Position numbers and translations under genes: made by a program. Below the pieces are notes generated by a model, which saw nothing but the letters and a program-made list of their open reading frames with translations, had not been told where the DNA came from and searched no databases. From a virus (Duplodnaviria; Heunggongvirae; Uroviricota; Caudoviricetes), in IMG/VR virus record IMGVR_UViG_3300037067_004979, positions 10,733 to 74,732 of that record: a stretch of DNA of 64,000 nt; one strand, written 5' to 3'. Positions 14,721-30,214 of this stretch are shown piece after piece (positions within the stretch are counted from its first letter, which is position 1; the number at the start of each line of letters is the position of its first letter).

Positions 14721-14730
14721 ATTTTTATTG

Positions 14731-14748
14731 ATGTTTTTTGGTATAATG
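14731..14748 (+). promoter_or_regulatory. conserved promoter motif GATGTTTTTTGGTATAAT
   Basis: Immediately after terminator; drives small-protein cluster. Confidence 0.55.
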
Positions 14749-14844
14749 TGTATATGCCAACTATTGAAATTGAGTTTAATGTTGTGGTGGGGGGTAATAA
14801 GATATAACCTTAACCATAACACTGTTGAGGATAGGGGAAAGTGT

Positions 14845-15027
14845 ATGGCTTGTGGGTATATTTTCCCTAATTACAAGCACTATATGGTAATATGTGATAA
14901 CTGTTTTGATGTGTGGAGTAATAATAGGTTATCCAAGGGGAGAGATCACTTCTTTAGAAATTTTAGGAGAATACCAACCATTGAGGAATACAAGAGATAC
15001 CGATTGCTTGATAGTTTAAGAGGATGA
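14845..15027 (+). CDS. small zinc-ribbon protein (MML-tail family)
   Basis: Start moved to ATG 14845 after AGGGGAAAG; CxxC...CDNCF; C-term EEYKRYRLLDSLRG. Confidence 0.45.
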   Translation: MACGYIFPNYKHYMVICDNCFDVWSNNRLSKGRDHFFRNFRRIPTIEEYKRYRLLDSLRG

Positions 15028-15275
15028 CTAAATTAGATAGAGTGTTATTTGCCTACTACAGGTATCACACAAACAGTCACAGAGAAACTGGTATGTGTAT
15101 ATGCTGTGATGCAAGGTGTAAGAATAACAACATCATGTTTTGTGAGAGTTGTCTCAATATCTATCTAACATTCAGGCAATCACTCAAAAAAAGTGAGCTA
15201 TATACCTTAGCTAAAGCCAGCAGTGATTTTGCTGACTTCAAGTATAAGCTAATGATGCTGAGGTTAAAAGCATAA
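15024..15275 (+). CDS. small zinc-ribbon protein (MML-tail family)
   Basis: CICCDARC...MFCESCL; C-term KLMMLRLKA. Confidence 0.5.
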   Translation: MTKLDRVLFAYYRYHTNSHRETGMCICCDARCKNNNIMFCESCLNIYLTFRQSLKKSELYTLAKASSDFADFKYKLMMLRLKA

Positions 15276-15529
15276 TGGATATTGATATTGCTAGATTAGC
15301 TAGAGCTGTATATTATCATTATAATCAAACATCATATGAAAAGATCAAAGAGTGCGTTGTTTGTGGTAAGGATGTAGCTTCTAATATGATCTTTTGTTCA
15401 GAACATGATAAACAGTGGGAGGATTTTAAGCATTATTCTCTTGGTTTGGAAGATACCTATGCTATGTTAGCTTCATCAGAATCTGAGGATGAGTATATTA
15501 GAAACCTAATGATGAGGGTAATGAGATGA
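15275..15529 (+). CDS. small zinc-ribbon protein (MML-tail family)
   Basis: CVVCGKDV...FCSEHD; C-term IRNLMMRVMR. Confidence 0.5.
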   Translation: MDIDIARLARAVYYHYNQTSYEKIKECVVCGKDVASNMIFCSEHDKQWEDFKHYSLGLEDTYAMLASSESEDEYIRNLMMRVMR

Positions 15530-15601
15530 TAGAGGATTTATGTATCTGTATATTTTTGTTAGTGCCTTGTTTTATCATAGCATTTATATTTTTTTGGCAG
15601 G

Positions 15602-15796
15602 ATGATATATAGATCAATCCTGAGAATCAAGAGAATTCATGAGGTATATCTATTCAGTAGTAAGATACTAGAAGAGGATATTAATGAATATTGTCTCTTG
15701 CCACCATTTAGATATATGGTAGATAGACATGATATACCATTAGAGGATTTTGCTAAGACTGAGAGAATATTATACAGGATGAGAAATAGCATATGA
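15602..15796 (+). CDS. small hypothetical protein, paralog of 15812
   Basis: Shares LLPPFRYMVDRHDIPLEDFAKTERILYRMRNSI-type C-terminus with next ORF. Confidence 0.4.
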   Translation: MIYRSILRIKRIHEVYLFSSKILEEDINEYCLLPPFRYMVDRHDIPLEDFAKTERILYRMRNSI

Positions 15797-15811
15797 GGAT
15801 CTACTAATAAG

Positions 15812-16084
15812 ATGTTTAGTATATTTATTATGATTATTTTTTCTATCATGGTAATTTGTTCAATTCCTTTTATAGTGACTGGTTTTATCAAAATTCATGA
15901 GTGTAATAAGGACTTAAAGAGAAATGAAGAGGTATATGATTACAGAGTAAGGATGATAAAAAAAGATTATGAGGAGTTTCTTCTTCTGCCAAGTTATGAT
16001 AAGATGTTGGAGGATAGAGACACACCCGTAGATGGTTTTGCCATAAGGGAAAGAATGCTGCATAGGATGAGAAAGAGTGTATGA
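15812..16084 (+). CDS. small protein with N-terminal TM helix, paralog of 15602
   Basis: LLLPSYDKMLEDRDTPVDGFAIRERMLHRMRKSV parallels previous ORF. Confidence 0.4.
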   Translation: MFSIFIMIIFSIMVICSIPFIVTGFIKIHECNKDLKRNEEVYDYRVRMIKKDYEEFLLLPSYDKMLEDRDTPVDGFAIRERMLHRMRKSV

Positions 16085-16368
16085 GTATCTGTGAAGATAT
16101 CCACTGCCCAGCCTGTTATTCAGTGAGTGGAGACCATGCAACTTATGAAATAGTACCAAAGTATACCTGTGGGACAATCTGGTGTGTGGGTGAGTGTATT
16201 ACTGGTGAGGCTGGTAACAGACTACAGTGCTGTTATCTATGTAGAAAGAGAGGCAGGTGTGATGAGTATGCACTGGTATATAAGGGTAGTGGACTAGAGG
16301 GTATCATGAGAACAAGAGCTATCAGAAAACACATAAGGAGATACTATAGAGATAATGAGTATATGTGA
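16081..16368 (+). CDS. Cys-rich small protein (CC-x-L-C subfamily)
   Basis: CPACYS...CGTIWCVGEC...CCYLCRKRGRC. Confidence 0.5.
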   Translation: MSICEDIHCPACYSVSGDHATYEIVPKYTCGTIWCVGECITGEAGNRLQCCYLCRKRGRCDEYALVYKGSGLEGIMRTRAIRKHIRRYYRDNEYM

Positions 16369-16621
16369 TGATATTAGGTGTCCCTGTGGTTATGATGTGC
16401 ATGGTATCTCTAGGTATGATCTTCACCCAAAATATGTAGATGATACATTACGATGTGATGAGTCTTGCCCCGATTCAAAGGATCATTTGTATGCATGCTG
16501 TTATCTATGTGATAGCAGAGATAAATGCAGTGTATTTACAGCTACCTTTGGTGGTCTTGAGGGTATAATAAGAGAAAAAAAGATCCGAGATCATCTGAAG
16601 GAACACTATGGTAAGTCCTGA
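16355..16621 (+). CDS. Cys-rich small protein (CC-x-L-C subfamily), tandem paralog
   Basis: MSICDDIRCPCGY...CCYLCDSRDKC; same N-terminus MSIC(E/D)DI as previous. Confidence 0.5.
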   Translation: MSICDDIRCPCGYDVHGISRYDLHPKYVDDTLRCDESCPDSKDHLYACCYLCDSRDKCSVFTATFGGLEGIIREKKIRDHLKEHYGKS

Positions 16622-16694
16622 GTATAGCTCAGTCTGGTAGAGCACTTGGCCTGGGACCAAGGGGTCGTTGGTTCGAATCCAACTACTCAGACCA
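16618..16694 (+). tRNA. tRNA-Pro (anticodon UGG), CCA encoded
   Basis: Cloverleaf read by hand: acceptor CTGAGTA/TACTCAG, D-arm GCTC-AGTCTGGTA-GAGC, anticodon arm CTTGG-CCTGGGA-CCAAG, T-arm GTTGG-TTCGAAT-CCAAC, ACCA 3' end. Confidence 0.75.
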
Positions 16695-16721
16695 AATAGA
16701 TGTTTGTTGTATAATGTAATT

Positions 16722-16982
16722 ATGCCAATAATAAAATTCTTTAGTAGTGATCTAGGATGCAGGATGGAGGATAATTCATCCTGTGAGTATAACACTGACA
16801 CTGGTGAGCTCATCTGTGCTGAGGAGTGTGATAGAATAACTGATAGTGATAACAATCACATCTGTTGTTTATTTTGTGGTAAATTTCCCTGTAAGGGATG
16901 GGATGAACCACTTGGAGCTATTATGATTAAGAACAATGCAATGAAGAAGATAGGTTATTGCATTGAGGAGAAACAACAGTGA
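16722..16982 (+). CDS. Cys-rich small protein
   Basis: Start trimmed to ATG 16722 to avoid tRNA; CEYNTDTGELICAEEC...CCLFCGKFPC. Confidence 0.4.
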   Translation: MPIIKFFSSDLGCRMEDNSSCEYNTDTGELICAEECDRITDSDNNHICCLFCGKFPCKGWDEPLGAIMIKNNAMKKIGYCIEEKQQ

Positions 16983-17278
16983 GTTGTGAGATCTGTGGTA
17001 GTCCTGATAAATTTAAGATCTGTTCATTTACCAGTGGAATCCGTTCAAATAGTTTGTATCATATCTTAGATCTGAAATCAGTAAATAACATGAATAGTGA
17101 GATTACTATACACCACAAGTTTTGCTCAGAACATCTAATTGAATTTTATCGTATGGAACTCATATTAAATGGGTTAAGAGATAATAACCTCCCTGTTGTG
17201 GGTGGTTGTAGGAGATGTAAGGATATACTAAAAAATTTATTTTCTGAGAGGGGACATGATATTACCAATCTACTCTGA
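16979..17278 (+). CDS. small zinc-ribbon protein
   Basis: CEICGSPDKFKIC...CSEH...CRRCKD. Confidence 0.45.
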   Translation: MSCEICGSPDKFKICSFTSGIRSNSLYHILDLKSVNNMNSEITIHHKFCSEHLIEFYRMELILNGLRDNNLPVVGGCRRCKDILKNLFSERGHDITNLL

Positions 17279-17446
17279 GATTATAGATATAATCATAGAG
17301 AGGAGGTTACCACTCCCCATGAATTGCAGTGGGAAAACAAATCATAACATGATGATGCTTCATCTCTGGTTTAACTCACTCATTGCAAGAGACAGGATTG
17401 TTTATCTGGATAGGAATGGTTATATACAGGAGGTTATGTTATAGAT

Positions 17447-17731
17447 ATGATTAAAGAATTAAGGGATTATATTGATATTTTCTTAAAAGTTGAAGAATTA
17501 GAGAATCAAGCAAGAACAGCAACTTCAGAGCTATATGGTATTCGTAATAAGACGTTCAAATTACTACAGGAAATAGGACACTCTGTTGCAATCTGTGTTG
17601 ATAATAAAGTTATTGTGCTTCAATCAGAGGGGACTTCCTCTGTAAAAGTCACTATTCACTACAGTGAGGATGAGGCTATCAAAAAATTAATGTTGGAGAA
17701 ACTGAATGACAAGAATCTGCCCAAAGTGTAA
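17447..17731 (+). CDS. small coiled-coil protein with LMLEKL C-terminal helix
   Basis: No Cys; C-term AIKKLMLEKLNDKN parallels ORF 18938. Confidence 0.45.
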   Translation: MIKELRDYIDIFLKVEELENQARTATSELYGIRNKTFKLLQEIGHSVAICVDNKVIVLQSEGTSSVKVTIHYSEDEAIKKLMLEKLNDKNLPKV

Positions 17732-17987
17732 GACAATTCTGTTTAGGGATGGCAAAAATACATATCATTGTATTGGTTGCTCTCTCAATGGTTCATACAT
17801 TGATATGGAGAGGCAGGCAATACAGATAAGAGATAGGGTAGAGAGACATGCCATCAAGGTCGAGTGTGTTAGGTGTGGTGTGAGAAAGGTACTCAATAAG
17901 GAGATATCCTGCTCTACACTAATCAATAATAACTCCAGATTTATCTGTCATGATTGCCAGAGTATTATCAGAATTGGTAGAAGATAA
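17706..17987 (+). CDS. small zinc-ribbon protein
   Basis: CPKCKT...CIGC...CVRCG...CHDCQ. Confidence 0.45.
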   Translation: MTRICPKCKTILFRDGKNTYHCIGCSLNGSYIDMERQAIQIRDRVERHAIKVECVRCGVRKVLNKEISCSTLINNNSRFICHDCQSIIRIGRR

Positions 17988-18358
17988 TGAGAATATACGC
18001 CAAGTTTAGTGAGATACATAATGTAGAGGTAAATGTGTCACATGTTGGATCATTCCACATGCCAGATTTATTGAAGATCCCTGGCGCTGAGATCACAGTT
18101 ATCAAGTGTAATAAATTTAATATAACCAAGGATAATAAGTATAATCCTAAGATTGTTGGTGATTTAATCAAACACATGAATTATAGATGGCATAGGGTTA
18201 AAGTTAAACTGTGTATTCCTGGTACCAGGTGTACTCTCACATACTCATCAGAGAGACTAATGGCAAGTGAGGTGAAGGCACTTGGGTTAGAGCCAATTGA
18301 ATCTGCTATTCTCAAGGAAGAGCAGTATGCCATGTTTGGAGCTATATCAGGTGGGTAA
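17987..18358 (+). CDS. hypothetical protein
   Basis: 123-aa ORF, no motif. Confidence 0.4.
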   Translation: MRIYAKFSEIHNVEVNVSHVGSFHMPDLLKIPGAEITVIKCNKFNITKDNKYNPKIVGDLIKHMNYRWHRVKVKLCIPGTRCTLTYSSERLMASEVKALGLEPIESAILKEEQYAMFGAISGG

Positions 18359-18533
18359 TTCTAGTGAGATAATCCTAATGATGCGTGCACAGTTAGACAG
18401 ATTACTGATTATCACTGGTGAGCTTGACATTAATCTGAGTGCTAGTGATTCTGTCTATGATGATATCATTCCATCTGTGGAAGCCATAAGAAGAGAACTG
18501 GCATCCATAGAGAGAGTCATCAGTAATGTATGA
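18297..18533 (+). CDS. hypothetical small protein
   Basis: 78-aa ORF, overlaps previous; weak. Confidence 0.3.
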   Translation: MNLLFSRKSSMPCLELYQVGNSSEIILMMRAQLDRLLIITGELDINLSASDSVYDDIIPSVEAIRRELASIERVISNV

Positions 18534-18611
18534 TACCATTGGCTTTATAATCTGGATTATTGTCTTTGTGGTTATTCTTGTGGTGTCTGCTATAGTTGGG
18601 AGGTCAAGCAG

Positions 18612-18896
18612 GTGAACTACGACAGAATAAGAAAGTTAGCATCAATTATAGTGGATTATTGTGAGGATCAATACCATACTGTTAAATATGATGGTAGATG
18701 TAGAGTGTGTGATGTGCTTATAGAACACGAATGTGTGTATTGCTGTAACACATGTTGGGAAACTTATTTTGAAAGTGGTATTTCCTTGATTGGGTGGGAT
18801 CCATCAACAGACTCCCTAATTAATTTCTATAGAAGTTTTAGAAATCTGTCTGATGAAGAAATCAGGTTGAAATTAATGCTAGGATCACTAAGGTAA
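18612..18896 (+). CDS. small zinc-ribbon protein (MML-tail family)
   Basis: GTG start after GGGAGG; CRVCDV...CVYCCNTCW; C-term IRLKLMLGSLR. Confidence 0.5.
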   Translation: MNYDRIRKLASIIVDYCEDQYHTVKYDGRCRVCDVLIEHECVYCCNTCWETYFESGISLIGWDPSTDSLINFYRSFRNLSDEEIRLKLMLGSLR

Positions 18897-18912
18897 GTTG
18901 TTTTTTGATATA
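18895..18912 (+). promoter_or_regulatory. conserved promoter motif GTTGTTTTTTGATATAAT
   Basis: Extended -10 copy; followed by GGAGGATTT RBS. Confidence 0.5.
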
Positions 18913-18937
18913 ATTATCATGTTTGGAGGATTTAACA

Positions 18938-19270
18938 GTGTTTAGAGAGAAATATCATGAGGTAAAAGCCATTGACGAAGAGGTAAAAAACATACAAAAA
19001 GAGATTGTTTCTTTTCTTGCCAAAACCCAGGCTAAATATTCTGATATGCAGATAGAGCTTCGTAAGAAAACTGGTGAACTTATCATGAAGAGAGGGGCTC
19101 TAATTGAATCCCTTGAGAAACTTGGTACAAATGTCTTTATTGAGGATGGTGACAAGAAGGTTATGATTACCTTCTTTACCAATAAGACTGGCAAGAAATC
19201 TGTGTTCTTTAATGAGGGAATTACCCCAGAGGAAGCAGATAGACAACTCATGCTGGAGAATCTAAAGTAG
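18938..19270 (+). CDS. small coiled-coil protein with LMLENLK C-terminus
   Basis: GTG 18938 sits 8 nt after GGAGGA (same RBS spacing as other genes after this promoter type); C-term ADRQLMLENLK. Confidence 0.45.
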   Translation: MFREKYHEVKAIDEEVKNIQKEIVSFLAKTQAKYSDMQIELRKKTGELIMKRGALIESLEKLGTNVFIEDGDKKVMITFFTNKTGKKSVFFNEGITPEEADRQLMLENLK

Positions 19271-19272
19271 AG

Positions 19273-19575
19273 ATGAAAACATACTTTGGGATAATTGATG
19301 ATATGGGCATAGAGAGTTTCATTGATCTTGAGGGTCTAAAGAGGGAGGATATGCTGAGGGCCCTCAAGAATGAGAAAAAATATAAGATGGCCTCTACCAT
19401 AAACTATCTATTACTCAGAGCAAGAATGAATCCACACAGGCACTCTCAGGTATACTGTGTCACTCTGAGTGATGGCCTTGCTAAGAAGATGAATAGCATG
19501 ATAGAGCGTGGTTTATATATGGAAGCTGTTAGGTTTCTTGGAAAGCATGACATAGAGATAGTAAAGATCAAATGA
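19273..19575 (+). CDS. hypothetical protein
   Basis: 100-aa ORF. Confidence 0.4.
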   Translation: MKTYFGIIDDMGIESFIDLEGLKREDMLRALKNEKKYKMASTINYLLLRARMNPHRHSQVYCVTLSDGLAKKMNSMIERGLYMEAVRFLGKHDIEIVKIK

Positions 19576-19793
19576 AGAAATCCGAGTGTGAGTTTGCTGT
19601 GTATTGCCCATTTGGTAATGATAGATACTGTGCTGGGATACCACATAAAACATATCACTGTTTTGAACCCAAAGCAAGTCATCTATTCTGTACTGATCAG
19701 TGTCATGTTAGGGGCGAGGTTATTAGTAATTTTGGCGAGTTTAGGGCTCTGATACTTAGACGCAAGGTGTTGGCATATCTTGAGAAAGCATAG
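19572..19793 (+). CDS. Cys/His-rich small protein
   Basis: CEFAVYCPFGNDRYCAG...HCFEP...CTDQCH. Confidence 0.45.
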   Translation: MKKSECEFAVYCPFGNDRYCAGIPHKTYHCFEPKASHLFCTDQCHVRGEVISNFGEFRALILRRKVLAYLEKA

Positions 19794-20079
19794 GATCATG
19801 TGTTATATCTGCGGTAAGCAGGAGTCTGAGTTTGTTGTATATAGAGACGACGAGATGTTATTCTTCTATTACCCACATAAAACCTACCTCCTATGTAAGA
19901 AGTGTGCTGTGTTGGAGAGGCTGACAAATTCCACATACACCATGTATAAGATACGCAGCATAAGAAATGTTGAGGAACACTCCAAGTGGATTCGTAAGGC
20001 TGTTGTCTATGTTATTATAGAGAATAGAAAACACGTGAAGAAACTCATTAGAGCCTGGGGGATCGATGTCAGGAAGTAA
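19780..20079 (+). CDS. small zinc-ribbon protein
   Basis: CYICGKQE...LCKKCAV. Confidence 0.45.
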   Translation: MRKHRIMCYICGKQESEFVVYRDDEMLFFYYPHKTYLLCKKCAVLERLTNSTYTMYKIRSIRNVEEHSKWIRKAVVYVIIENRKHVKKLIRAWGIDVRK

Positions 20080-20182
20080 GTGCCCAGTCTGTAATAACTA
20101 TTGTAGTGATCCTGGTGGTGTATGTGTTTATTATTGTTGTAATCATGAACAAACCTGTTGTCTGGTCTGTGATCATTTTTAA
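20066..20182 (+). CDS. Cys-rich micro-protein (38 aa, 10 Cys), not in ORF track
   Basis: MSGSKCPVCNNYCSDPGGVCVYYCCNHEQTCCLVCDHF; contains CC-L-V-C motif of the local family; competes with overlapping ORF 20106-20324. Confidence 0.35.
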   Translation: MSGSKCPVCNNYCSDPGGVCVYYCCNHEQTCCLVCDHF

Positions 20183-20329
20183 GAGAGTTGCTGCAAAGAA
20201 ACTTAGGGGACACTGTGGTCTTCTTCAGGGTGGCCTCTACAAGAAGGTATTTGAAACATATAATATCACTGATTATTGTTTTCCCCTGAAAAACCCAAAG
20301 AGCAAGAGAGAGCTTAGTAAGTAGTATTA

Positions 20330-20347
20330 ATTGTTTTTTGGTATAAT
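20330..20347 (+). promoter_or_regulatory. conserved promoter motif TTGTTTTTTGGTATAAT
   Basis: Extended -10 copy followed by GGAGGATTT RBS. Confidence 0.5.
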
Positions 20348-20366
20348 TTCAAGTGGAGGATTTCAA

Positions 20367-21083
20367 ATGATTGAATTAACGCCAATTGAGAAAAAAATAC
20401 TGAGTGTATTTAAGGCTAGGGGAGCAGATGATGCTCTTAACATTGTTAAAGCACTAAAACAGAAACCAATCTACTATCAGGTGAGTGGCCTGAGACAGGA
20501 ATATAACCTAAGATTTGTTAAGGCTCTGATGAAGACATCCAGTCCAGCTGGAGCCAATGAGTACATCATATACTCCAATGGTGATTTGGGTAGTTACCAC
20601 AATGAAAAATACTTCTCAGGTTCGTTTACTGTGGGTGGATATCACAGAATCTATAATGGTTCTAATATCTCAGCTATTGAGACACCCAGCTGGGTATCTT
20701 CCTGCTTTGGCAAGACTGTTTCTGATGAGATCATTCAATACATAACAGATAATCTAAAAAGAGAGCAGGTTGTGGGAAGTCTGATTAGTAGAATTTGTGC
20801 AGGTTTAATTAAGAATATGGGTGAGGAGGATTGGGGATACACAGTGTTTAAGTATCTCATGACTGATGAGCATCTAACTGCACTGGATCTAACACTAGAG
20901 AATCTAATTCAACCTAATAAGAAATATGGTGCGCGTGACCTACAGGAGTATATCAGTGATATACTTAAGGGATACATCAATGATAACTTTGAGAACTACC
21001 TATCTGGGGACAGGTCATTTATGAATGTATCTCTGTCAGAGTGTTTGAGAAAATCAATGATGCTGAGTTTACTAAGAAGGTAG
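20367..21083 (+). CDS. hypothetical protein
   Basis: Start placed at ATG 20367 after GTGGAGGATTTCAA; 238 aa. Confidence 0.5.
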   Translation: MIELTPIEKKILSVFKARGADDALNIVKALKQKPIYYQVSGLRQEYNLRFVKALMKTSSPAGANEYIIYSNGDLGSYHNEKYFSGSFTVGGYHRIYNGSNISAIETPSWVSSCFGKTVSDEIIQYITDNLKREQVVGSLISRICAGLIKNMGEEDWGYTVFKYLMTDEHLTALDLTLENLIQPNKKYGARDLQEYISDILKGYINDNFENYLSGDRSFMNVSLSECLRKSMMLSLLRR

Positions 21084-21100
21084 ATATTTTTTGATATAAT
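21083..21100 (+). promoter_or_regulatory. conserved promoter motif ATTTTTTGATATAAT
   Basis: Extended -10 copy; GGAGGATTT RBS; ATG 21121. Confidence 0.5.
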
Positions 21101-21120
21101 TAAAAAATGGAGGATTTATT

Positions 21121-22152
21121 ATGAAACCATCACAAGTACTGGAGGCAATGGCTGTCTCCTACAAGAACAACGGACCACGTATCATTCTCATTGGTAGCCC
21201 CGGCACTGCAAAGACAAGTCTGGTAAATCAGCTGCCAGCATACATGAAGAAACCCAATCTTCCTGTATACACATTCCAGGCAACACTCTATGCACCTGAT
21301 GAGGTAAAAGGTTTACCCACTCTTGTTACCAAGTCTGATGGTAGGCAAGAGGCTGTATTCCTTCCGTTTCAGGATATGCCATCTGCACCGGAGGGTATAC
21401 TCAACATTGATGACCTGCCACATGCACCGACAGCTACACAGAATGCCTTTATGAGACTGATTCTTGAAAACATCTGTGGGGCATGGAATCTGGGTGGTAT
21501 CAGACCATTTGCCACAGGAAACCGGTCAAGTGATCGAGCTGGTGCAAAGGATCTGCAATCTGCAATGGCCAACAGGTTTACCAGAATAGAGGTAGACATC
21601 AACTATGAGGATTGGAGATCCTGGGCAATAGGACAGAACATACGACCAGAGATCATATCATTTCTTGGTGCTCCCTATGGAGCAGAGTGGCTCAACAATG
21701 ACAAGTTTGATCCTGGTAGGCAGGTCAATCCCACCCCAAGGTCATGGGAGTTTGCCTCAAGGTGGTTTGAGGCCTTCAAGGGACAGGGTGAGGTGCTTCA
21801 TGAGTGTCTGAATGGATGCATTGGTGGAGCGGCTACATCAAAGTTCATGGGCTGGTTGAAGGTCTACTCTGAGTTGCCAGATCTTAATCTGATCATGCAG
21901 GGTGCTAAGACATACCCTGAAAAACTTGACATCTTCTATGCCTGCATATCTGGTCTGGTACAACTAGCCAGAAACTCAACAAAGAGAGCACAGGCTTTCC
22001 AGACTCTGGTTGATTATGCCACCACCATACCTGATAAGTATATTGAGATGGGTGCCATGCTCAGTAAAGACCTATTTCTTTTGGATGAGAAGGTCTTTAC
22101 CAAGTGCAACATCAGCAAGTGGCAAAACAGATATGAGGATGTAATTCTCTAA
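21121..22152 (+). CDS. MoxR-like AAA+ ATPase
   Basis: Walker A LIGSPGTAKTS, Walker B LNIDDL, sensor/arginine finger region; size 343 aa typical of MoxR/CbbQ family; GC-richer than flanks. Confidence 0.7.
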   Translation: MKPSQVLEAMAVSYKNNGPRIILIGSPGTAKTSLVNQLPAYMKKPNLPVYTFQATLYAPDEVKGLPTLVTKSDGRQEAVFLPFQDMPSAPEGILNIDDLPHAPTATQNAFMRLILENICGAWNLGGIRPFATGNRSSDRAGAKDLQSAMANRFTRIEVDINYEDWRSWAIGQNIRPEIISFLGAPYGAEWLNNDKFDPGRQVNPTPRSWEFASRWFEAFKGQGEVLHECLNGCIGGAATSKFMGWLKVYSELPDLNLIMQGAKTYPEKLDIFYACISGLVQLARNSTKRAQAFQTLVDYATTIPDKYIEMGAMLSKDLFLLDEKVFTKCNISKWQNRYEDVIL

Positions 22153-22206
22153 TATTCCAACGCAGTCCATCATTCACATGGTGGACTGAATGGAGGATTA
22201 AAGAAA

Positions 22207-23373
22207 ATGGATAAGAAAGTAATAAGAGCTAAGGTACAACTGATGTTGAAGTACCCCTTCTTTGGGGCTCTGTCAGCTCTTCTTGAACTTGTAGATTATG
22301 ATGGTAATACCTTTGCTACTGATGGAAAGCACATCTTTGTACCACCGAAGGAATACTATGATGGCACCAAGGGGCTTCTCTATGATGACTCACAACTGAT
22401 AACAGTCATAGCCCATGAAACTGCTCACTGTGCATTCCTGCATAGCTACAGAGAGGGCAATCGTAACCACATGGGATGGAATGTAGCTGGTGATCTTGCC
22501 ATTAATCCAATCCTGAAACAGGCAGGGCTGAGTGTTAATCCGGCCTGGTTATACAACAAGGATTATGAGGGGATGACTGCAGAGAGAATATATGAGCTTC
22601 TACCAAAGGTTTATGTTTCCTCTTCAGGTGGTGGATCTGGGTCTGGATCTGGGGGTGGCATGTCTGTTCCAGGAAATATGAATGACATCAAGGACTCAAA
22701 GGGTCAGAATAAGTCTAAGGGTAAGGACACTAACGATAGATACATGACTGAAAATGACTGGAAGGATGCTGTTGCTCAGGCTGCTCAGGATGCAAAGCAG
22801 AAGGGAAAGCTACCAGGTGGTCTTGAACAGTACATAGAGGAATTTCTTAATCCAAAGATTCCCTGGCAACAGGTGCTCATGAGATACCTGCAAACATCAA
22901 GGGGATGCAGTGACTATCGTAGTTATCCATATCGCCGGGCTCATCTTCACAGAGGATTATACATGAGTTCACTTGCTGGAGACAGCATTGAGTTGGTCTG
23001 TGCAATTGATACCTCTGGATCCATTGGTGATGTTGAGTTTAAATCATTCCTGGGTGAGATATGTGGAATATGTCAAGCCTTTGGTGAATATCAGATACAC
23101 CTATTTCAGTGTGATGCTCAAATTCATGAGTATACTGTGATAGAATCAGAGGCTGATGTTCCTCACAAGATGAAGGGTCGTGGTGGTACCAGTTTTGTAC
23201 CGGTATTTGAGAAGGTTAATGAACTTGAGCTTGATGATCTACCCCTGGTGTACTTCACCGATCTGTGTGGTGATTTCCCATCAGAGGGTAAATCTAACAC
23301 ATATTGGGTTGTTAGGGAGGAGTTTGCCAAGCAATTTAAGCCACCATTTGGGGAGGTCATCGAGCTAGACTAA
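22207..23373 (+). CDS. VWA-domain protein with N-terminal HExxH metallopeptidase-like domain (DUF2201-like partner of MoxR)
   Basis: AHETAHCAFLH HExxH; Gly/Ser linker; MIDAS motif CAIDTSGSIGD; adjacency to AAA+ ATPase. Confidence 0.65.
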   Translation: MDKKVIRAKVQLMLKYPFFGALSALLELVDYDGNTFATDGKHIFVPPKEYYDGTKGLLYDDSQLITVIAHETAHCAFLHSYREGNRNHMGWNVAGDLAINPILKQAGLSVNPAWLYNKDYEGMTAERIYELLPKVYVSSSGGGSGSGSGGGMSVPGNMNDIKDSKGQNKSKGKDTNDRYMTENDWKDAVAQAAQDAKQKGKLPGGLEQYIEEFLNPKIPWQQVLMRYLQTSRGCSDYRSYPYRRAHLHRGLYMSSLAGDSIELVCAIDTSGSIGDVEFKSFLGEICGICQAFGEYQIHLFQCDAQIHEYTVIESEADVPHKMKGRGGTSFVPVFEKVNELELDDLPLVYFTDLCGDFPSEGKSNTYWVVREEFAKQFKPPFGEVIELD

Positions 23374-23386
23374 ATCCTCCATTAGT

Positions 23387-23434
23387 ATGGGTGCTGGGGT
23401 ATATCTCTAGCACCCATATTCTCTCTTTATTTGG
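23387..23434 (+). terminator. rho-independent terminator
   Basis: Perfect 9-bp stem ATGGGTGCT/AGCACCCAT then T-rich tract. Confidence 0.55.
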
Positions 23435-23446
23435 TGAGGAAATCAA

Positions 23447-23749
23447 ATGAAAAATTCAGATAAGATTAAGACAATCCTAACAATCCTAGATGAATACTAT
23501 TCCTGTCATGAGACTAGTGATTCCTGGAGTCTTAGTTATACCAGAGAAACCAAATGTAGATGTTGTGATAAGATTCTGGAAGATCATGACTTTCCTATTC
23601 TATGTACTAGATGTTATCTATATATGTGTGATCAGGTTATTCGCAGTTTTCCTCATTTTAGTGGTTGGTTTTGGAAGGACATATTCAAAGAGTTTACAGT
23701 AGAGGAGATATATAAATCAATTCTCACGAGGAGTCTTTCTGGTGGATAG
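23447..23749 (+). CDS. small zinc-ribbon protein
   Basis: CRCCDK...LCTRCYLYMCD. Confidence 0.5.
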   Translation: MKNSDKIKTILTILDEYYSCHETSDSWSLSYTRETKCRCCDKILEDHDFPILCTRCYLYMCDQVIRSFPHFSGWFWKDIFKEFTVEEIYKSILTRSLSGG

Positions 23750-23999
23750 AGCTATCTGTTGTAGACTATTTTTGTGCAAGCAAGCAGAAGAAAGGCCTGA
23801 GGCACAATTAAAAATTATCAATGGATCCCTCTATTGTGGTAGTTGTGATAGGTATACTGGAATACACTCATGCTGTGTGTATTGTAATACAGATAGATAT
23901 TATGGTTGTAAGACACTTACCAAATACATAAGCAAATCTTTCATAGAAGAGAAAATACCTGAGATAAAGCTCGCCATGATGCTGAGAAATCTATCATGA
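23742..23999 (+). CDS. Cys-rich small protein (CC-x-Y-C, MML tail)
   Basis: CCRLFLC...CGSC...CCVYCNTDRYYGC; C-term KLAMMLRNLS. Confidence 0.5.
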   Translation: MDRAICCRLFLCKQAEERPEAQLKIINGSLYCGSCDRYTGIHSCCVYCNTDRYYGCKTLTKYISKSFIEEKIPEIKLAMMLRNLS

Positions 24000-24256
24000 A
24001 CAGACAGATTTGTTATGATCTGATTAAGTGTAAACAAGCCGAAAATGCCCTATATGATGAATTGATTCTCATTAATGATATGTTACATTGTGGTTACTGC
24101 TCCAATCTTGGACTTTTGCATCCCTGTTGTGTTTTCTGTAAAGAGAAATGTAAGGGTAGAGACTATGTAAGAGGTATTAATAAGAGTATGATCATCAAAG
24201 CTCTTCCTAAGATAAAGAAAGCCATGATGTTGGAGGCCTTGAATGATAGAGACTAA
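23996..24256 (+). CDS. Cys-rich small protein, tandem paralog
   Basis: CGYC...CCVFCKEKC; C-term IKKAMMLEALNDRD. Confidence 0.5.
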   Translation: MNRQICYDLIKCKQAENALYDELILINDMLHCGYCSNLGLLHPCCVFCKEKCKGRDYVRGINKSMIIKALPKIKKAMMLEALNDRD

Positions 24257-24551
24257 CAAGGTTAGATATGTGTTATCTACAATGGAGAAATTCTATCAAG
24301 ATAAAACTTACAAGACAGTTTGGGTTATTGGAGAGAATAATACAGATGTCTGCCCAACTTGTGGGAAACATGTCAAATATAAAGAATATATTTATGGGGT
24401 TTGTACACCATGCTATATAGATGTTTGTGATTTAGTGCGCTCAGCTATTGGTAGCTTTGAATATGGATACTGGGATGAAATTATAAGTGGAATAGGTGTT
24501 GAGAAACTGGTTGAGCTCTGCATGCTTAAGAAACTTGGGAGTACAGAGTAG
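24243..24551 (+). CDS. small zinc-ribbon protein
   Basis: CPTCGKHV...CTPCYIDVCD. Confidence 0.5.
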   Translation: MIETNKVRYVLSTMEKFYQDKTYKTVWVIGENNTDVCPTCGKHVKYKEYIYGVCTPCYIDVCDLVRSAIGSFEYGYWDEIISGIGVEKLVELCMLKKLGSTE

Positions 24552-24666
24552 ATGGTTGAGCTACTATTTGTGATATCAATCATCTCATTCATAGTTCAGT
24601 GCTATGCTAAGAAGAGAGAGAAGGAATGCAAGCATGATGAAAACAGAGAGGCTATGCTAAGGAAAC

Positions 24667-24888
24667 TTGGTGGTGATGACTAGTTTCTGTAGGATGGCCA
24701 GATGTACTATTAGTAGTGACTTCTTTAATGTTGCAACAAGAGAGTGCAGTTTTTCCTGCGGTAATGGTTCACGGCTGACTTGTTGTGTATTTTGTGGTAA
24801 GGAAAAATGTAGTCTCAGATGTGCTAAACAGATTATGGATACTCAGGAAATAAAAAGGATGATGATGCTATGTCAGTTAAGTCAGTAA
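24667..24888 (+). CDS. Cys-rich small protein (MML tail)
   Basis: CSFSCGNGSRLTCCVFCGKEKC; C-term IKRMMMLCQLSQ. Confidence 0.45.
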   Translation: MVVMTSFCRMARCTISSDFFNVATRECSFSCGNGSRLTCCVFCGKEKCSLRCAKQIMDTQEIKRMMMLCQLSQ

Positions 24889-25136
24889 AATGTCATGACG
24901 TGATTGGTAAGTGTGATTATGTCTTTACACAACATGGTGAGATATTAGAGGGAGCCATAGTTTGTAATAACTTAGCATATCAGTCAACCAATAATTCATG
25001 TTGTAAGACCTGCTGTTATCTATGTAAAAGTGATCGTAAGTGTCTGACTATAACAGGAGAGGGTGAGGGATTGTCTCTACTAATGAAAAAAAGAAAGATT
25101 ATGAAGATAATCAGAGACATGAAAAGATGTTTATGA
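24870..25136 (+). CDS. Cys-rich small protein (CC-x-L-C subfamily)
   Basis: CCKTCCYLCKSDRKC. Confidence 0.45.
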   Translation: MSVKSVKCHDVIGKCDYVFTQHGEILEGAIVCNNLAYQSTNNSCCKTCCYLCKSDRKCLTITGEGEGLSLLMKKRKIMKIIRDMKRCL

Positions 25137-26041: not shown

Positions 26042-26686
26042 ATGTCAAAGAAAAACAAGGTCACTCATGCAGGGGGCATGACAGTAGAGCGAGTTGACAA
26101 TCTCCAGGAAATTCTGCCTGAGGTAGAGAAGTCAACAGCAAACTCTGTAGAACATACAGAGACAGACACCAAGCAAATGTATGATAGCTTTTTCGAGAAG
26201 CTCATACAGAAACTTGGCATTAAGCCTTCATGGGCCGGCACGCGTCATCTCAGGATATTCAATTCTGAGAAAGGCAGCAATTACTTCGTGGTTGTTTTCC
26301 ATCCAAAGACAGGACTGGTTGGCTGCGAGTTCTGGATGAGAGGAAAGAGGTCATTCACAGAAGAGATGCTGGAGAGGCTGCCCAGTCTCGGTCTAAATGA
26401 GGAAGTTGTACCAAAATACAACAACGGGAAGGATGCACACATCCAGGTCAGCATGGAAACAAAAAATGCCACCCCTGAATGGGCATCAAAGACATTGAAA
26501 AAAATGATGGACATCATCAACCCGCTTCTCAAAGTTGAAGAGACCACAGCGCCGGCGGCAACAGAAGAGAAAAAATCACATAAAGGCAAGGCCAGGAAGG
26601 TAGCTGAGGTGACCACTCCGACTGAGGAACACCTTGATGTTGAGGTTACTGATCAGGGTGCGGGGGAACCCCTTCTGATTAAATAG
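26042..26686 (+). CDS. hypothetical protein (compositionally GC-richer gene)
   Basis: RBS AAGGAGGAATT; 214 aa; visibly higher GC (e.g. GGGCCGGCACGCGTC, CAGCGCCGGCGGCAAC). Confidence 0.5.
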   Translation: MSKKNKVTHAGGMTVERVDNLQEILPEVEKSTANSVEHTETDTKQMYDSFFEKLIQKLGIKPSWAGTRHLRIFNSEKGSNYFVVVFHPKTGLVGCEFWMRGKRSFTEEMLERLPSLGLNEEVVPKYNNGKDAHIQVSMETKNATPEWASKTLKKMMDIINPLLKVEETTAPAATEEKKSHKGKARKVAEVTTPTEEHLDVEVTDQGAGEPLLIK

Positions 26687-26814: not shown

Positions 26815-27015
26815 ATGGCAAAGAAAGTACAGACACAGGAAACTGAGACCAAGACAAAGGCCATCAAGGTAGATATAACACAGATGGTAATAACTCACGC
26901 CTACCAGAGAAATTACAAAACTGGTTCAACTGGGTTCTTTGGCCAGGGAATGGATCCACAGACTGGAAAGAAGTATCAGATTCTCGGTTGTGTTGAGGTC
27001 AAACCGAAAGCATAA
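26815..27015 (+). CDS. small basic protein
   Basis: 66 aa, own promoter and terminator. Confidence 0.5.
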   Translation: MAKKVQTQETETKTKAIKVDITQMVITHAYQRNYKTGSTGFFGQGMDPQTGKKYQILGCVEVKPKA

Positions 27016-28557: not shown

Positions 28558-28818
28558 TCATGTTAATTTAGATCTACTGTATCTTCTATACTTGAGATAT
28601 TTTTGGGAGAACATTAGACGTGCTAGGGGTTCTACCATTGCTAGGATGTTATGTTCTCTATCACATTCCCCTATATTCCTACATATCAGACAGCACTTGC
28701 ATTGATCTTTTTCACTTGTATTCCATATCTCACAGCTAAAAATACTGTTATTCTTTCTTGTTTTTCCATACTTGCATCCAACTGAGATGCAATCATCTAT
28801 ACTAATTGGGCTCTTCAT
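28558..28818 (-). CDS. Cys-rich small protein, tandem paralog
   Basis: CISVGCKYG...CKCCLICRNIGEC. Confidence 0.5.
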   Translation of the reverse strand: MKSPISIDDCISVGCKYGKTRKNNSIFSCEIWNTSEKDQCKCCLICRNIGECDREHNILAMVEPLARLMFSQKYLKYRRYSRSKLT

Positions 28819-29098
28819 CTCTAACCCCCAGATATTTTTGTCTAAAGACTAGTAGCATCAGTGGATCAACATCACTCATTTTCCCAACAACATTCCTGTG
28901 CCAGTTGCATGTGTCATCACACAGCAAACAGCACCCAGTTATACTGTTCATTCTATTAGAAATAGTGGGGGGATAGACTTTAAATCCATCACCTCTTCTA
29001 CAAACCTTTCCACAGTCATGTAAAGTTTTCATACTTGGTATTAACTCACTGTGTGGGCATCTGAGAGATTCACAGTCCTCTCTTCTTATAAATCTCAT
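28802..29098 (-). CDS. Cys-rich small protein
   Basis: CESLRCPHS...CGKVC...CCLLCDDTC. Confidence 0.45.
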   Translation of the reverse strand: MRFIRREDCESLRCPHSELIPSMKTLHDCGKVCRRGDGFKVYPPTISNRMNSITGCCLLCDDTCNWHRNVVGKMSDVDPLMLLVFRQKYLGVRDEEPN

Positions 29099-29439
29099 CT
29101 CATGTTCTCAAGTATTATTATTTTTTTAAACTCATCAAATGATATATTAACTACTTCTTCCATACTCATCCTTGTTACTCTTATTAATATATGATATATC
29201 ACATTTATCTCATCCCTAAATATCCTAGCTAATTTATCATGACAATGCAAGTGCATTTGATATGGCCATGATGACATAAAATAATCTGATTTACGTATAT
29301 GCACCGGATTATTACAGTAAATACATATTTGATCATATGATAGTGGTTGAACACGAGCGGACATCTTTTGAGATATCAGATATTTCTTTATCTGTATGAA
29401 GTCATTGATATCAATCACTCTAACCCCCCATATTTCCAA
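29095..29439 (-). CDS. hypothetical protein
   Basis: 114 aa; C-term IIILENMR. Confidence 0.4.
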   Translation of the reverse strand: MEIWGVRVIDINDFIQIKKYLISQKMSARVQPLSYDQICIYCNNPVHIRKSDYFMSSWPYQMHLHCHDKLARIFRDEINVIYHILIRVTRMSMEEVVNISFDEFKKIIILENMR

Positions 29440-29671
29440 TCATCAAGACCCTTCTATAATCGGGATCTGTTGGTAGTATTCCTTTATTTCTATAGTCACC
29501 AATTGCTGATATAAAACTAAAGATCTCATTATTGTGCTTATGAAAACACTTTTTGCAGCTGTAGAAGACTCTATCATGATGACAGTCTCTACCACAGATA
29601 AGGCACCTGCGGAGAGGTACAGCCCTGGTAGTATGCTGCTGATATATACCTAGTAATATCTCAAATTTCAT
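29420..29671 (-). CDS. small zinc-ribbon protein (MML tail)
   Basis: CLICGRDCHHDRVFYSCKKCFHKH; C-term RRVLMIGNMGG. Confidence 0.5.
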   Translation of the reverse strand: MKFEILLGIYQQHTTRAVPLRRCLICGRDCHHDRVFYSCKKCFHKHNNEIFSFISAIGDYRNKGILPTDPDYRRVLMIGNMGG

Positions 29672-29882
29672 TACTGCCTCATCCTTAAAAGCATTATCAG
29701 TCTTTTTACAGTATCTTCATTATTTTCTGTTATCTTTAAATTAACCTGAAAACATACTTGTCTTTTATTAACATAAAGACACTCATAACAGCAAACATAA
29801 TCATTGCATAACTACTGTCCACCAAAACAGTCCTCTCTGAATGAACAATTAAGCTTATCACACAATTCATTTCTCATTGTTT

Positions 29883-29957
29883 TGGTACCCCCGGCAGGAG
29901 TTGAACCTGCATTCTCTGTTTAGAAGACAGATGCTCTATCCACTGAGCTACGGAGGC
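29883..29957 (-). tRNA. tRNA-Arg (anticodon UCU), CCA encoded
   Basis: Reverse complement GCCTCCG-TA-GCTC-AGTGGATA-GAGC-A-TCTGT-CTTCTAA-ACAGA-GAAT-GCAGG-TTCAACT-CCTGC-CGGGGGT-A-CCA. Confidence 0.8.
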
Positions 29958-29962
29958 ACACA

Positions 29963-30214
29963 CTATCTTGACTCCAACTTTCCGAGCATTATTACTCTTC
30001 TGTATGTCTCATCATTTGGCAGTATTTGATATGAGTAATATAGATCGATTGCTGAGATAAACTTCCTTGCCTCATTACCATGAATAGCCCAACAGTCATT
30101 ACACATAAATATTGTTTGATCATCCCTACAGTATTTACCACAGACTGGGCAATCTTCTATTATCCCATAATAGTAGCATCTTCTATATATGTGTTGCAGT
30201 ATTGAGATATCCAT
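29963..30214 (-). CDS. small zinc-ribbon protein (MML tail)
   Basis: CPVCGKYCRDDQTIFMCNDCW; C-term RRVIMLGKLESR; close paralog of 29420. Confidence 0.5.
   Translation of the reverse strand: MDISILQHIYRRCYYYGIIEDCPVCGKYCRDDQTIFMCNDCWAIHGNEARKFISAIDLYYSYQILPNDETYRRVIMLGKLESR

Follow-up and report, generated by a model that had tools for sequence, protein, structure and literature searches.

A phage N4 gp24/gp25-type pair of a MoxR-like AAA+ ATPase and a zincin-VWA protein in an uncultured tailed phage: vertical inheritance and a putative role as a guided protease

Organization of the locus

The window analysed here is a stretch of 64,000 nucleotides from a 106-kb contig of an uncultured tailed phage. 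It carries two genes for a MoxR/dynein-type AAA+ ATPase and for a protein in which a zincin metallopeptidase domain precedes a VWA domain with a MIDAS (Table 1). The first-pass annotation had placed both open reading frames correctly, and the motifs that it quoted (Walker A, Walker B, HExxH, Gly/Ser linker and MIDAS) are all present. These motifs do not reflect chance, since both proteins match Pfam and PHROGs families, both give confident structure models and the zincin and MIDAS residues of the second protein are invariant across 37 homologs. The two genes share a strand, the ATPase gene coming first and a gap of 54 nt following it, and are preceded by an identical strong ribosome-binding context, AATGGAGGATT. 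The spacer between them is predicted to fold into a stable RNA structure, in which the region of the ATPase stop codon (22150-22159) pairs with the Shine-Dalgarno sequence GGAGGA of the VWA gene (22192-22197) to form an outer stem, with an inner hairpin at 22163-22188. Among the related phage contigs considered below, L007 (z = -6.6) and L009 (z = -2.8) have stable hairpins in the corresponding spacer, the sequence of which is not conserved; in L005 a local hairpin is present, with a fold that is not significant (z = -0.18). The structure may serve translational coupling of the two genes or control of their stoichiometry. Downstream of the VWA gene, a hairpin resembling an intrinsic terminator (-25.5 kcal/mol, z = -5.8) is the sole site of this kind detected in 19.5-24.5 kb, and comparable hairpins are found 3' of the VWA gene in L005 and L007, which suggests that the pair closes its own transcription unit.

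The gene immediately upstream of the ATPase has no match in Pfam or PHROG; its longest open reading frame, from a TTG start at 20331, would encode 250 aa. Syntenic genes of 230-324 aa are located directly 5' of the ATPase in L005, L007 and L009, and their similarity to the window's gene or to each other is weak but significant (21-30% identity, E 6e-6 to 3e-4). The other immediate neighbours of the pair are small ORFs of early or non-structural type. On a larger scale, the pair is flanked at a distance by a gene with a region similar to prohead proteases (13059-14651) and by a gene similar to those of major capsid proteins (34474-35847). The layout of L009 is the same; there, the upstream gene is a weak Peptidase_S78 match. 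When the region was compared with 50,697 phage records by megablast, no match was obtained; thus, the source phage is novel at the DNA level.

Table 1. Genes, protein motifs and predicted RNA structures at the locus
Feature	Position (nt)	Strand	Size or residues	Remarks
Upstream gene	20367..21083	+	238 aa	From ATG 20367; unassigned
AAA+ ATPase gene	21121..22152	+	343 aa	N4 gp24-like; MoxR/dynein type
Walker A, GSPGTAKTS	21193-21219		aa 25-33	
Walker B, LNIDDL	21400-21417		aa 94-99	
Putative sensor 1, N134/R135	21520-21525			
R152	21574-21576			
Putative sensor 2, R207	21739-21741			In TPRSWE
Helical C-terminal domain			~aa 215-343	Family-specific
Intergenic RNA structure	22150..22200	+		MFE -21.6 kcal/mol; z = -5.9; 0/200 shuffles as stable
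Zincin-VWA gene	22207..23373	+	388 aa	N4 gp25-like
Metallopeptidase domain			aa 1-135	M48/minigluzincin-like
HETAH	22414-22428		aa 70-74	
H79	22441-22443			
Gly/Ser-rich linker	22618-22734		aa 138-176	Disordered; Gly/Ser stretch ~aa 138-152
VWA domain			aa 260-388	
MIDAS, DTSGS	23008-23022		aa 268-272	
MIDAS, T328	23188-23190			
MIDAS, D352	23260-23262			
Intrinsic-terminator-like hairpin	23384..23430	+		16-bp stem, then T-rich tail; 11 nt past VWA stop

The ATPase

The ATPase is assigned to the MoxR/dynein-related clade (AAA_5/AAA_3, COG0714). It matches Pfam AAA_5 barely above threshold (E 2.3e-5, 24.8 bits versus a cut-off of 22) and a PHROGs family with E 1.6e-53, and its structure was modelled with a pLDDT of 92. 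The window protein has no match to AAA_3 (PF07726), and several homologs that are 47-52% identical to it carry a precomputed match to this family. The helix-2 insert and the pre-sensor-1 beta-hairpin of the MoxR/dynein/midasin/McrB/MCM superclade are both present. Together with its partner, the protein had been recognized in the first-pass annotation as one half of a dyad of a MoxR-type AAA+ ATPase and an HExxH/VWA-MIDAS protein, a known type of chaperone and co-chaperone. This domain assignment is correct, and both the AAA+ and the VWA fold were found by Pfam and in the structure models.

The nucleotide-binding motifs deviate from the consensus at two positions. In Walker A, Lys31 and Thr32 are kept and Ala30 stands in place of the Gly of GxxGxGK[ST]. 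Glycine precedes the P-loop lysine in 150 of 153 aligned family members, the exceptions being Ala in the window protein, another Ala and a Ser. In Walker B (ILNIDD), an aspartate replaces the catalytic glutamate of hhhhDE. Since this DD form predominates in the family (94 DD, 56 DE and 5 EE in 155 aligned members), it appears to be a family trait rather than a sign of decay. Nevertheless, the combination of the rare G30A substitution with a DD Walker B suggests that the ATPase activity of the window protein may be weak or absent. N134 and R207 are invariant and R152 is conserved in 158 of 160 aligned sequences; their positions in the model and the alignment are consistent with roles as sensor 1, sensor 2 and arginine finger, respectively.

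The zincin-VWA protein

Both halves of the partner protein match Pfam far over the cut-off: DUF2201_N (PF13203) over aa 4-240 (E 5.5e-34, 118.5 bits) and the VWA-like DUF2201 (PF09967) over aa 263-388 (E 3.7e-21, 76 bits). The domain order, zincin then VWA, is that of the DUF2201_N/DUF2201 family (COG3864, 'predicted metal-dependent peptidase'), and the protein also matches phrog_1314 with E 2.2e-86. In the structure model (pLDDT 81), the VWA domain adopts a Rossmann-like fold and a helical region lies between it and the linker. The label 'HNH endonuclease', widely propagated for the protein family of the pair, is without domain support.

The zincin (clan MA) and MIDAS sites are strictly conserved. 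Residues H70, E71 and H74 of the former and D268, T269, S270, S272, T328 and D352 of the latter are invariant across 37 homologs, and G271 of the MIDAS is invariant or nearly so. R82, R86 and D96 of the zincin domain are also invariant, with H79 kept in at least 90%. A direct sequence search of the PDB gave no significant homolog for either protein of the pair; the PDB was reached only by the profile of the zincin N-terminal domain, via M48 peptidases (3c37 with E 7e-5, MJ1213 with E 1e-3, as well as BepA and HtpX). The invariance of the zincin site points to proteolysis rather than metal insertion. In NCBIfam neither protein was matched, and neither was matched by the curated defence models of PADLOC at E up to 0.01.

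Relatives of the pair in phages and bacteria

By sequence comparison, the window pair is a copy of the gp24/gp25-type module of phage N4, which is old and widespread. The ATPase is 26% identical to N4 gp24 (E 9e-22) and the zincin-VWA protein 30% identical to N4 gp25 (E 7e-33), and the N4 genes (Schitoviridae) match the window pair in their order, in the sizes of their products and in the arrangement of the domains. The identity is only 26-30%, and the source phage is unrelated to N4 and larger. The core of N4-like phages comprises 14 genes, gp24 and gp25 being two of them, and in N4 both give middle transcripts (PMC4193335). Membership in this family brings no mechanism to the window pair; we found no functional study on DUF2201/COG3864 or N4 gp24/gp25 in the literature, nor any experimental work on a DUF2201_N protein.

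The best matches among isolated phages are jumbo-phage homologs (phage G, PA5oct, RaK2-like). A MoxR ATPase and a vWA protein with an N-terminal metallopeptidase, the architecture of the window pair, have been described in group 2.2 jumbo phages, with a predicted role in assembly (Iyer et al. 2021, Viruses 13:63, PMC7824862). Thus, the pair is no oddity in a phage. A distance of 3-4 kb separates the two genes in phage G and PA5oct, whereas in the window they are adjacent. A further dispersed arrangement is found in the Vequintavirinae (rV5-like phages), where the MoxR protein Bas58_0063 is 27% identical to the window ATPase and the 'putative metallopeptidase' bas58_0055, which has both DUF2201_N and DUF2201, is 22% identical to the zincin-VWA protein. 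Unlike the window genes, which are adjacent on the same strand, these two are ~4 kb apart on opposite strands. The MoxR ATPase bas54_0063, which we infer to be orthologous to bas58_0063 from the shared locus-tag number 0063 and the annotation, is a distant homolog (~27%) and the sole family member with a genetic phenotype. Its knock-out was obtained and plated, and the gene was specifically needed against defence DS-28; the screen flagged the ATPase only, not the zincin-VWA gene (bioRxiv 10.1101/2025.11.20.689424).

Linkage of the ATPase and VWA genes is near-obligate and their order is fixed, in phages as well as in bacteria. The ATPase gene is located 5' of the VWA gene on the same strand in all 70 IMG/VR loci with enough upstream sequence, and N4 and an N4-like Pantoea phage have the two genes next to each other. 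In bacterial genome assemblies, scanned with a profile from a 15-sequence alignment, the ATPase gene again precedes the VWA gene on its strand in 51 of 60 loci, the median distance between the two being 4 nt. Around the bacterial copies, ordinary cellular genes and no obvious phage genes were found among the 10 neighbours scanned, in a survey for which ORF calling was crude in GC-rich DNA. Within this survey, a prophage location of the bacterial copies is not supported.

By contrast with the pair, the adjoining genes vary. In different lineages they belong to three mutually unrelated families. The gene often found between the ATPase and VWA genes of other phages was considered as a counterpart of the window's upstream gene and rejected (hhalign probability <1%), and the two families of such intervening genes are unrelated to each other according to hhalign. 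Their Pfam matches are sub-threshold only (DUF3150 with E 0.018 and Nmad5 with E 0.0012). Beside the pair, we found no third conserved partner of the kind known from VMAP-type vWA-MoxR ternary conflict systems (Kaur et al. 2020).

Few non-structural, non-replicative gene pairs of tailed phages are conserved as widely as this module. Besides belonging to the core of N4-like phages, it occurs in this uncultured lineage, in rV5-like phages, in jumbo phages and in many bacteria. The divergent copy in the window adds little that is new alone. The comparative results, namely, the fixed order, the invariant zincin and MIDAS sites, the majority DD state, the variable adjacent third gene and the intergenic hairpin, sharpen the question for N4 and for Bas54 of the BASEL collection.

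Base composition and descent

The pair is GC-richer than its surroundings, as the first-pass annotation had noticed: the GC content is 0.465 for the ATPase gene and 0.440 for the zincin-VWA gene versus 0.359 for the rest of the window. The two genes rank second and fourth of 93 ORFs (z = +2.2 and +1.7 among long genes), and the codon usage of the ATPase gene is the second most deviant among long genes. The patch is not unique, since the gene at 26042-26686 is GC-richer than either. Within the block at 14.7-27.1 kb, GC3 of the pair is ordinary, with z-scores of only +1.2 and +0.3, whereas GC1 is 0.515 and 0.553 versus 0.393 in the block. The excess over the neighbours sits at first codon positions and thus reflects the amino-acid composition of the proteins. 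The GC-richness as a whole is explained by this composition together with the codon usage of the gene block rather than by a foreign origin.

The same is apparent from related phages. Four related contigs, L002, L005, L007 and L009, all carry the pair in the same gene order, and the region around it is collinear with that in L007 and L009. Across these relatives the pair is 46-62% identical, its divergence matching that of the flanking conserved genes (36-64%), and the GC excess recurs in all four (0.38-0.47 versus 0.30-0.38 in the surroundings). The pair is therefore vertically inherited in this phage lineage and not newly acquired. Recent horizontal transfer into this phage, which had been proposed from the GC-rich patch and would be in line with the GC rank, the deviant ATPase codon usage and the occurrence of homologous dyads in GC-rich bacteria, has a next to negligible probability, given the orthologs at the same syntenic position, their shared divergence and GC excess, the ordinary GC3 and the identity of just 28-34% to the nearest bacterial relatives. 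An elevated GC content in part of an AT-rich phage genome is no evidence of recent transfer.

Possible function of the module

We propose with fair confidence that the pair is a vertically inherited gp24/gp25-type module that acts as an ATPase-driven, MIDAS-guided zincin protease, probably on a host target. Judging from CbbQ/CbbO, NorQ/NorD and midasin, a ring of the ATPase would engage one VWA protein, the MIDAS ion of which would hold a target protein by an acidic residue. Hydrolysis of ATP would then remodel or pull on this target, and the linker-tethered zincin would cleave what has been captured; the net result would be a two-polypeptide, adaptor-guided ATP-dependent protease. Expression is probably ahead of the late genes, as in N4, from a transcription unit that the pair appears to end. 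The putative mechanism departs from its models in several respects. The adaptors of the Rubisco activase CbbQ/CbbO and of NorQ/NorD are without a peptidase domain and their known clients are encoded nearby; unlike CbbQ and NorQ, the window ATPase carries ~120 additional residues as a helical C-terminal domain, and its Walker B is of the DD form. FtsH and Lon also couple an AAA+ motor to a protease, an HExxH zincin in the case of FtsH. This is a functional analogy and not homology: motor and protease form one chain, the AAA+ clades and the peptidase families differ, and no VWA/MIDAS adaptor takes part.

The identity of the target is the weakest step. We judge a host protein, e.g., a defence or takeover-related factor, to be the most likely one, because the sole genetic evidence in the family is a conditional need against host defence. 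A stronger version, in which the pair, driven by ATP and guided by the MIDAS, recognizes and then destroys or disables an immunity protein of the host or some other host complex midway through infection, is possible but doubtful. It derives from the Bas54 homolog only, and core status in N4-like phages together with the bacterial chromosomal copies fits housekeeping remodelling better than dedicated anti-defence. If true, it would define a new mechanistic class of anti-defence common to N4-like, rV5-like and jumbo phages and to this lineage. More speculatively, the zincin substrates could be phage proteins, e.g., the neighbouring small zinc-ribbon proteins. Many such Cys-rich proteins are encoded near the pair and have a common C-terminal motif, [KR]xxhMLxxL. 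As zincin substrates these motif proteins were rejected: in L002, L005 and L009, three of the four relatives, the pair is present and the motif is not enriched.

A role in virion assembly has been proposed for the jumbo-phage pair by analogy with Acidianus two-tailed virus (Iyer et al. 2021, PMC7824862). Its MoxR protein p618 and VWA protein p892 form a viral MoxR-VWA pair and are the cited precedent for virion assembly. The virus is archaeal, and p892 is without a peptidase domain. Applied to the window, this would make the pair a chaperone-protease that folds or assembles head or tail components, with the zincin processing structural proteins. The location between prohead-protease-like and major-capsid-like genes, similar in L009, and the core status in N4-like phages are consistent with such a role. 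So is the annotation of the PA5oct ATPase homolog, which belongs to work on purified particles and flags the protein as seen by ESI-MS/MS; since the paper uses another gp numbering, the association of this homolog with the virion is tentative. By contrast, the transcripts of N4 gp24/gp25 are middle rather than late, a Bas54 MoxR knock-out was obtained and plated, the gene being needed only against a specific defence, and the dyad also occurs in bacterial chromosomes without obvious phage genes nearby. The neighbours in the window are small ORFs of non-structural type, and a separate prohead-protease-like gene is already there. We thus regard an assembly role as a tentative alternative to the guided protease.

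Two other alternatives concern the chemistry of the pair. A metal-insertion role, suggested in the first-pass annotation, received no specific support. In such a chaperone for cofactor maturation, similar to NorQ/NorD, CoxD/CoxE or CobS/CobT, the HExxH would merely bind metal, whereas the N-terminal domain is an M48/minigluzincin-type zincin with an invariant catalytic Glu. Moreover, no metalloenzyme client gene is conserved beside the pair in phages or bacteria, and the partner belongs to DUF2201, not to CobT, NorD or CoxE, which makes this role very unlikely. It is also highly improbable that hydrolysis has been lost in this phage and that the ATPase merely binds or regulates the zincin-VWA protein as a scaffold. 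The absence of the Gly before the P-loop Lys, seen in only 3 of 153 members, and the change of the Walker B Glu to Asp would agree with such a loss. However, the DD state, as that of the family majority, is compatible with function, K31, T32, N134, R152 and R207 are all retained, and the gene is full length and otherwise conserved.

The pair belongs to the N4 gp24/gp25 family

Both ORFs lie on the plus strand exactly where the first-pass annotation had placed them, and its reading of the two products as a MoxR-type AAA+ ATPase and an HExxH-VWA protein is upheld by Pfam, PHROG, structure models and conserved residues. The ATPase matches the Pfam domain AAA_5 (dynein-related AAA domain) barely over the curated cut-off (E 2.3e-5) and the PHROG family 'ATPase', phrog_1297 (E 1.6e-53). 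Its alignment-based structure model is confident (pLDDT 92.4), and K31, N134 and R207 are invariant in the alignment, with R152 nearly so. The protein has a MoxR/dynein-clade AAA+ fold with nucleotide-sensing residues and a helical C-terminal domain of ~120 aa; the full fold is also present in phage G gp566 and the RaK2 'Gp24-like protein'.

The zincin-VWA protein matches DUF2201_N ('putative metallopeptidase domain', E 5.5e-34) and DUF2201 ('VWA-like domain', E 3.7e-21) in Pfam and phrog_1314 in PHROGs (E 2.2e-86). Used as a profile, its N-terminal 134 residues recover solved M48-family peptidases and minigluzincins (3c37, E 7e-5; MJ1213, 1e-3; BepA, 4e-3). The HExxH residues H70, E71 and H74 and the MIDAS residues D268, T269, S270, S272, T328 and D352 are invariant in 37 homologs, so that, judged from the alignment, the predicted zincin site and complete MIDAS are strongly conserved. 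In the structure model (alignment-based and likewise confident, pLDDT 81.2) disorder is confined to the Gly/Ser-rich linker (aa 138-176), a flexible tether joining the zincin and VWA parts. Some homologs (P0042, P0047 and P0050 in the protein alignment A2) carry in this otherwise disordered linker a CxxC...CxxC insert that looks like a zinc ribbon. In PHROGs (phrog_1314) and RefSeq phage records the family is commonly labelled 'HNH endonuclease' or 'homing endonuclease', as for N4 gp25 (locus L095, 4165-5307), PA5oct gp144 (locus L011, 4986-6170) and phage G gp576. Because Pfam detects no HNH domain in the family, only DUF2201_N and DUF2201, the naming seems to be an error passed on from record to record.

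Features of the window
Feature	Position	Strand	Remark
ORF with HNH endonuclease PHROG match	10023-10796		E 8.6e-13
Small CxxC ORFs	14728-25136; 28558-33086	+; -	60-115 aa
tRNA genes Pro-TGG, Arg-TCT, Ser-TGA, Ile-TAT	16618-16694; 29883-29957; 31429-31590	+; -; -	four genes
ATPase gene	21121-22152	+	343 aa
ATPase Walker A	21193-21219		GSPGTAKTS, aa 25-33
Spacer RNA structure	22150-22200		-21.6 kcal/mol, z -5.9
Zincin-VWA gene	22207-23373	+	388 aa
Gene with the highest GC	26042-26686		214 aa
Small neighbouring gene	26815-27015
Glycosyltransferase-like/epimerase-like gene cluster	39634-47414

The ATPase is 26% identical to gp24 of Escherichia phage N4 (E 9e-22) and the zincin-VWA protein 30% identical to N4 gp25 (E 7e-33); gp24 and gp25 are adjacent and in the same order as in the window. 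The pair is a new, divergent addition to the N4 gp24/gp25 family (MoxR-like ATPase plus DUF2201 zincin-VWA) and comes from a phage that is otherwise novel and uncultured, with no DNA match to isolated phages. By tblastn, 631 phage records contain relatives of the VWA protein and 704 contain relatives of the ATPase; among them are N4-like phages, Vequintavirinae, jumbo phages (G, PA5oct and the RaK2 group), cyanophage S-TIM5 and Thermus phage phiFa. The gene pair is an ordinary one for phages, and its function is now testable in model phages.

Linkage of the two genes is close to obligate. All 70 IMG/VR loci that extend far enough upstream have a family ATPase gene ahead of the VWA gene and in the same orientation, as do 51 of 60 loci from bacterial assemblies, complete chromosomes included (median gap in the bacterial loci 4 nt). 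The bacterial dyads (loci L096-L175, e.g. CP037918.1, NZ_CP182342.1 and Thioalkalivibrio denitrificans), in which the two genes as a rule overlap or are separated by a few bases, occur in sulfur-oxidising Gammaproteobacteria, Campylobacterota and Acidobacteriota among others, and their sampled neighbours are ordinary cellular genes. Since the dyad is common in bacterial genome assemblies, the module is not phage-specific. At most phage loci outside the window's lineage (IMG/VR loci L015-L094), a single gene (216-293 aa) stands between those for the ATPase and the VWA protein (e.g. L052, 7127-7999; L023, 3985-4650). Two families supply this gene, one at 33 loci and the other at 14; they are unrelated to each other and to the gene upstream of the pair in the window, and their only matches, to DUF3150 and Nmad5, are sub-threshold. 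This variable third gene may encode an adaptor or a substrate.

Possible functions of the pair

The pair agrees structurally with MoxR-VWA remodellers, deviates from them in two motifs and adds a predicted protease. With no conserved third partner found, it falls outside the VMAP-type ternary systems, and neither protein has a PADLOC hit that would place it in a known defence or anti-defence family. By analogy with CbbQ/CbbO, NorQ/NorD and midasin, the ATPase would assemble into a ring and engage a single adaptor molecule, the MIDAS ion would capture an acidic residue of a client and ATP hydrolysis would remodel that client; the tethered zincin, on the same kind of analogy, would then cleave it.

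The sole genetic evidence for the family comes from phage Bas54, where a knock-out of the MoxR ATPase gene bas54_0063 could be obtained and the gene is specifically required against the predicted defence DS-28 (HIDEN-SEQ preprint, bioRxiv 10.1101/2025.11.20.689424). In the related phage Bas58, the gene sharing its number, bas58_0063, encodes a protein 27% identical to the window ATPase, with a DUF2201 zincin-VWA gene, bas58_0055, 4 kb away. In N4, gp24 and gp25 are middle transcripts, and the core set shared by all N4-like phages, which numbers only 14 genes, includes gp24 ('unknown') and gp25 ('vWFA domain') (Chan et al. 2014, PMC4193335). Given the Bas54 phenotype, the middle-phase timing in N4 and the early-type genes around the pair in the window, a host target is somewhat more likely than a virion target, by a small margin.

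The same architecture, a MoxR ATPase together with a vWA protein that has an N-terminal metallopeptidase, has been described in jumbo phages (Iyer et al. 2021, PMC7824862). The role in virion assembly proposed in that paper agrees with several observations: head genes flank the pair in the window and in the related contig L009, the pair is core in N4-like phages, and an ATPase homolog is flagged as detected by mass spectrometry in the annotation of the PA5oct particle study. However, the Bas54 mutant is viable, and both the middle-phase timing and the bacterial copies of the dyad argue against assembly. It is also possible that the ATPase is a catalytically dead scaffold. The Walker motifs quoted in the first-pass annotation are present, and both deviate from the canonical form. 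In Walker A, Ala precedes the catalytic Lys (G30A) at a position occupied by Gly in 150 of 153 aligned relatives, including all of the closest (54-65% identity); one other IMG/VR homolog has Ala and one has Ser. Walker B reads DD instead of the canonical DE, but most family members share DD (94 DD, 56 DE, 5 EE). The G30A substitution would allow for a dead enzyme, but every other catalytic residue is kept. Metal insertion, as suggested at first pass, finds no conserved client gene, and the peptidase site of the partner is intact.

GC content and descent

The pair is GC-richer than its surroundings, as had been noted earlier (0.465/0.440 versus 0.359 in the rest of the window; second and fourth among 93 ORFs), but the recent horizontal acquisition proposed on this ground is contradicted by the synteny and divergence of relatives, their shared GC excess and codon-position GC. 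The closest relatives are all metagenomic (46-62% amino-acid identity), and their pairs occupy the same site, preceded by a weakly related gene of 230-324 aa and amid arrays of 60-100-aa ORFs. The window shares its gene order with L009 from gene 10771, past the prohead-protease-like gene 13059 and the pair, to gene 26815, and with L007 over five small ORFs that precede the pair. At 50-56%, the identity between the window's pair and those of these two contigs is inside the range of other conserved genes (36-64%). The nearest bacterial relatives reach only 28-34%. GC of the pair exceeds that of its surroundings in all four relatives (0.417/0.406 versus 0.360; 0.467/0.383 versus 0.300; 0.471/0.454 versus 0.377; 0.422/0.391 versus 0.326). 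Third-position GC differs between the small-ORF block at 14.7-27.1 kb (0.377 +/- 0.072) and the structural block at 33.6-64 kb (0.263 +/- 0.053), and that of the pair is ordinary within its own block (z = +1.2 and +0.3). What sets the pair apart from its neighbours is first-position GC (0.515/0.553 versus 0.393 +/- 0.061), an excess that reflects amino-acid composition.

RNA signals around the pair

Each gene of the pair is preceded by the same strong ribosome-binding context, AATGGAGGATT. The 54-nt spacer between them folds into a stable RNA structure, whose outer stem in the window pairs the Shine-Dalgarno of the VWA gene with the ATPase stop-codon region. Hairpins of different sequence occupy the same position in L007 (9117-9194, z -6.6) and L009 (9907-10005, z -2.8); the spacer of L005 has only a local hairpin, and its fold is non-significant. 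The hairpin may serve to couple translation of the two genes or to control dosage; that it keeps the adaptor less abundant than the ATPase is speculation. Directly 3' of the VWA gene is a terminator-like hairpin (-25.5 kcal/mol, z -5.8), and stable hairpins follow this gene in L005 and L007 as well.

Other features of the window

At least 17 small ORFs of the window, and others in L007, contain at least two CxxC pairs and look like zinc ribbons; ten of these ORFs were scanned, and none has a Pfam family. Many small ORFs share a C-terminal motif, [KR]xxhMLxxL: in the window 9 of 54 have it, where shuffles predict 0.7, and in L007 11 of 50, with no enrichment in L002, L005 or L009. The 250-aa gene directly upstream of the ATPase also ends in ...RKSMMLSLLRR. 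The gene with the highest GC (0.468) has, among genes of at least 150 aa, the highest third-position GC (0.521) and the most deviant codon usage, and lacks a confident Pfam or PHROG match; its small neighbour is kept in L009 (45% identity). The lowest-GC kilobase (10001-11000, 0.257) coincides with the HNH-matching ORF, which may be a homing endonuclease gene that has inserted into a stretch of large conserved genes. Three of the four tRNA genes lie in a minus-strand block at ~27-33 kb, across which the sign of GC skew flips, the genome being otherwise plus-strand. Finally, two glycosyltransferase-like genes (phrog_2170, E ~1e-36) and a nucleotide-sugar epimerase-like gene (phrog_540, E 1.9e-78), flanked by a capsid-like gene and tail-like genes, may modify virion or host-surface glycans.
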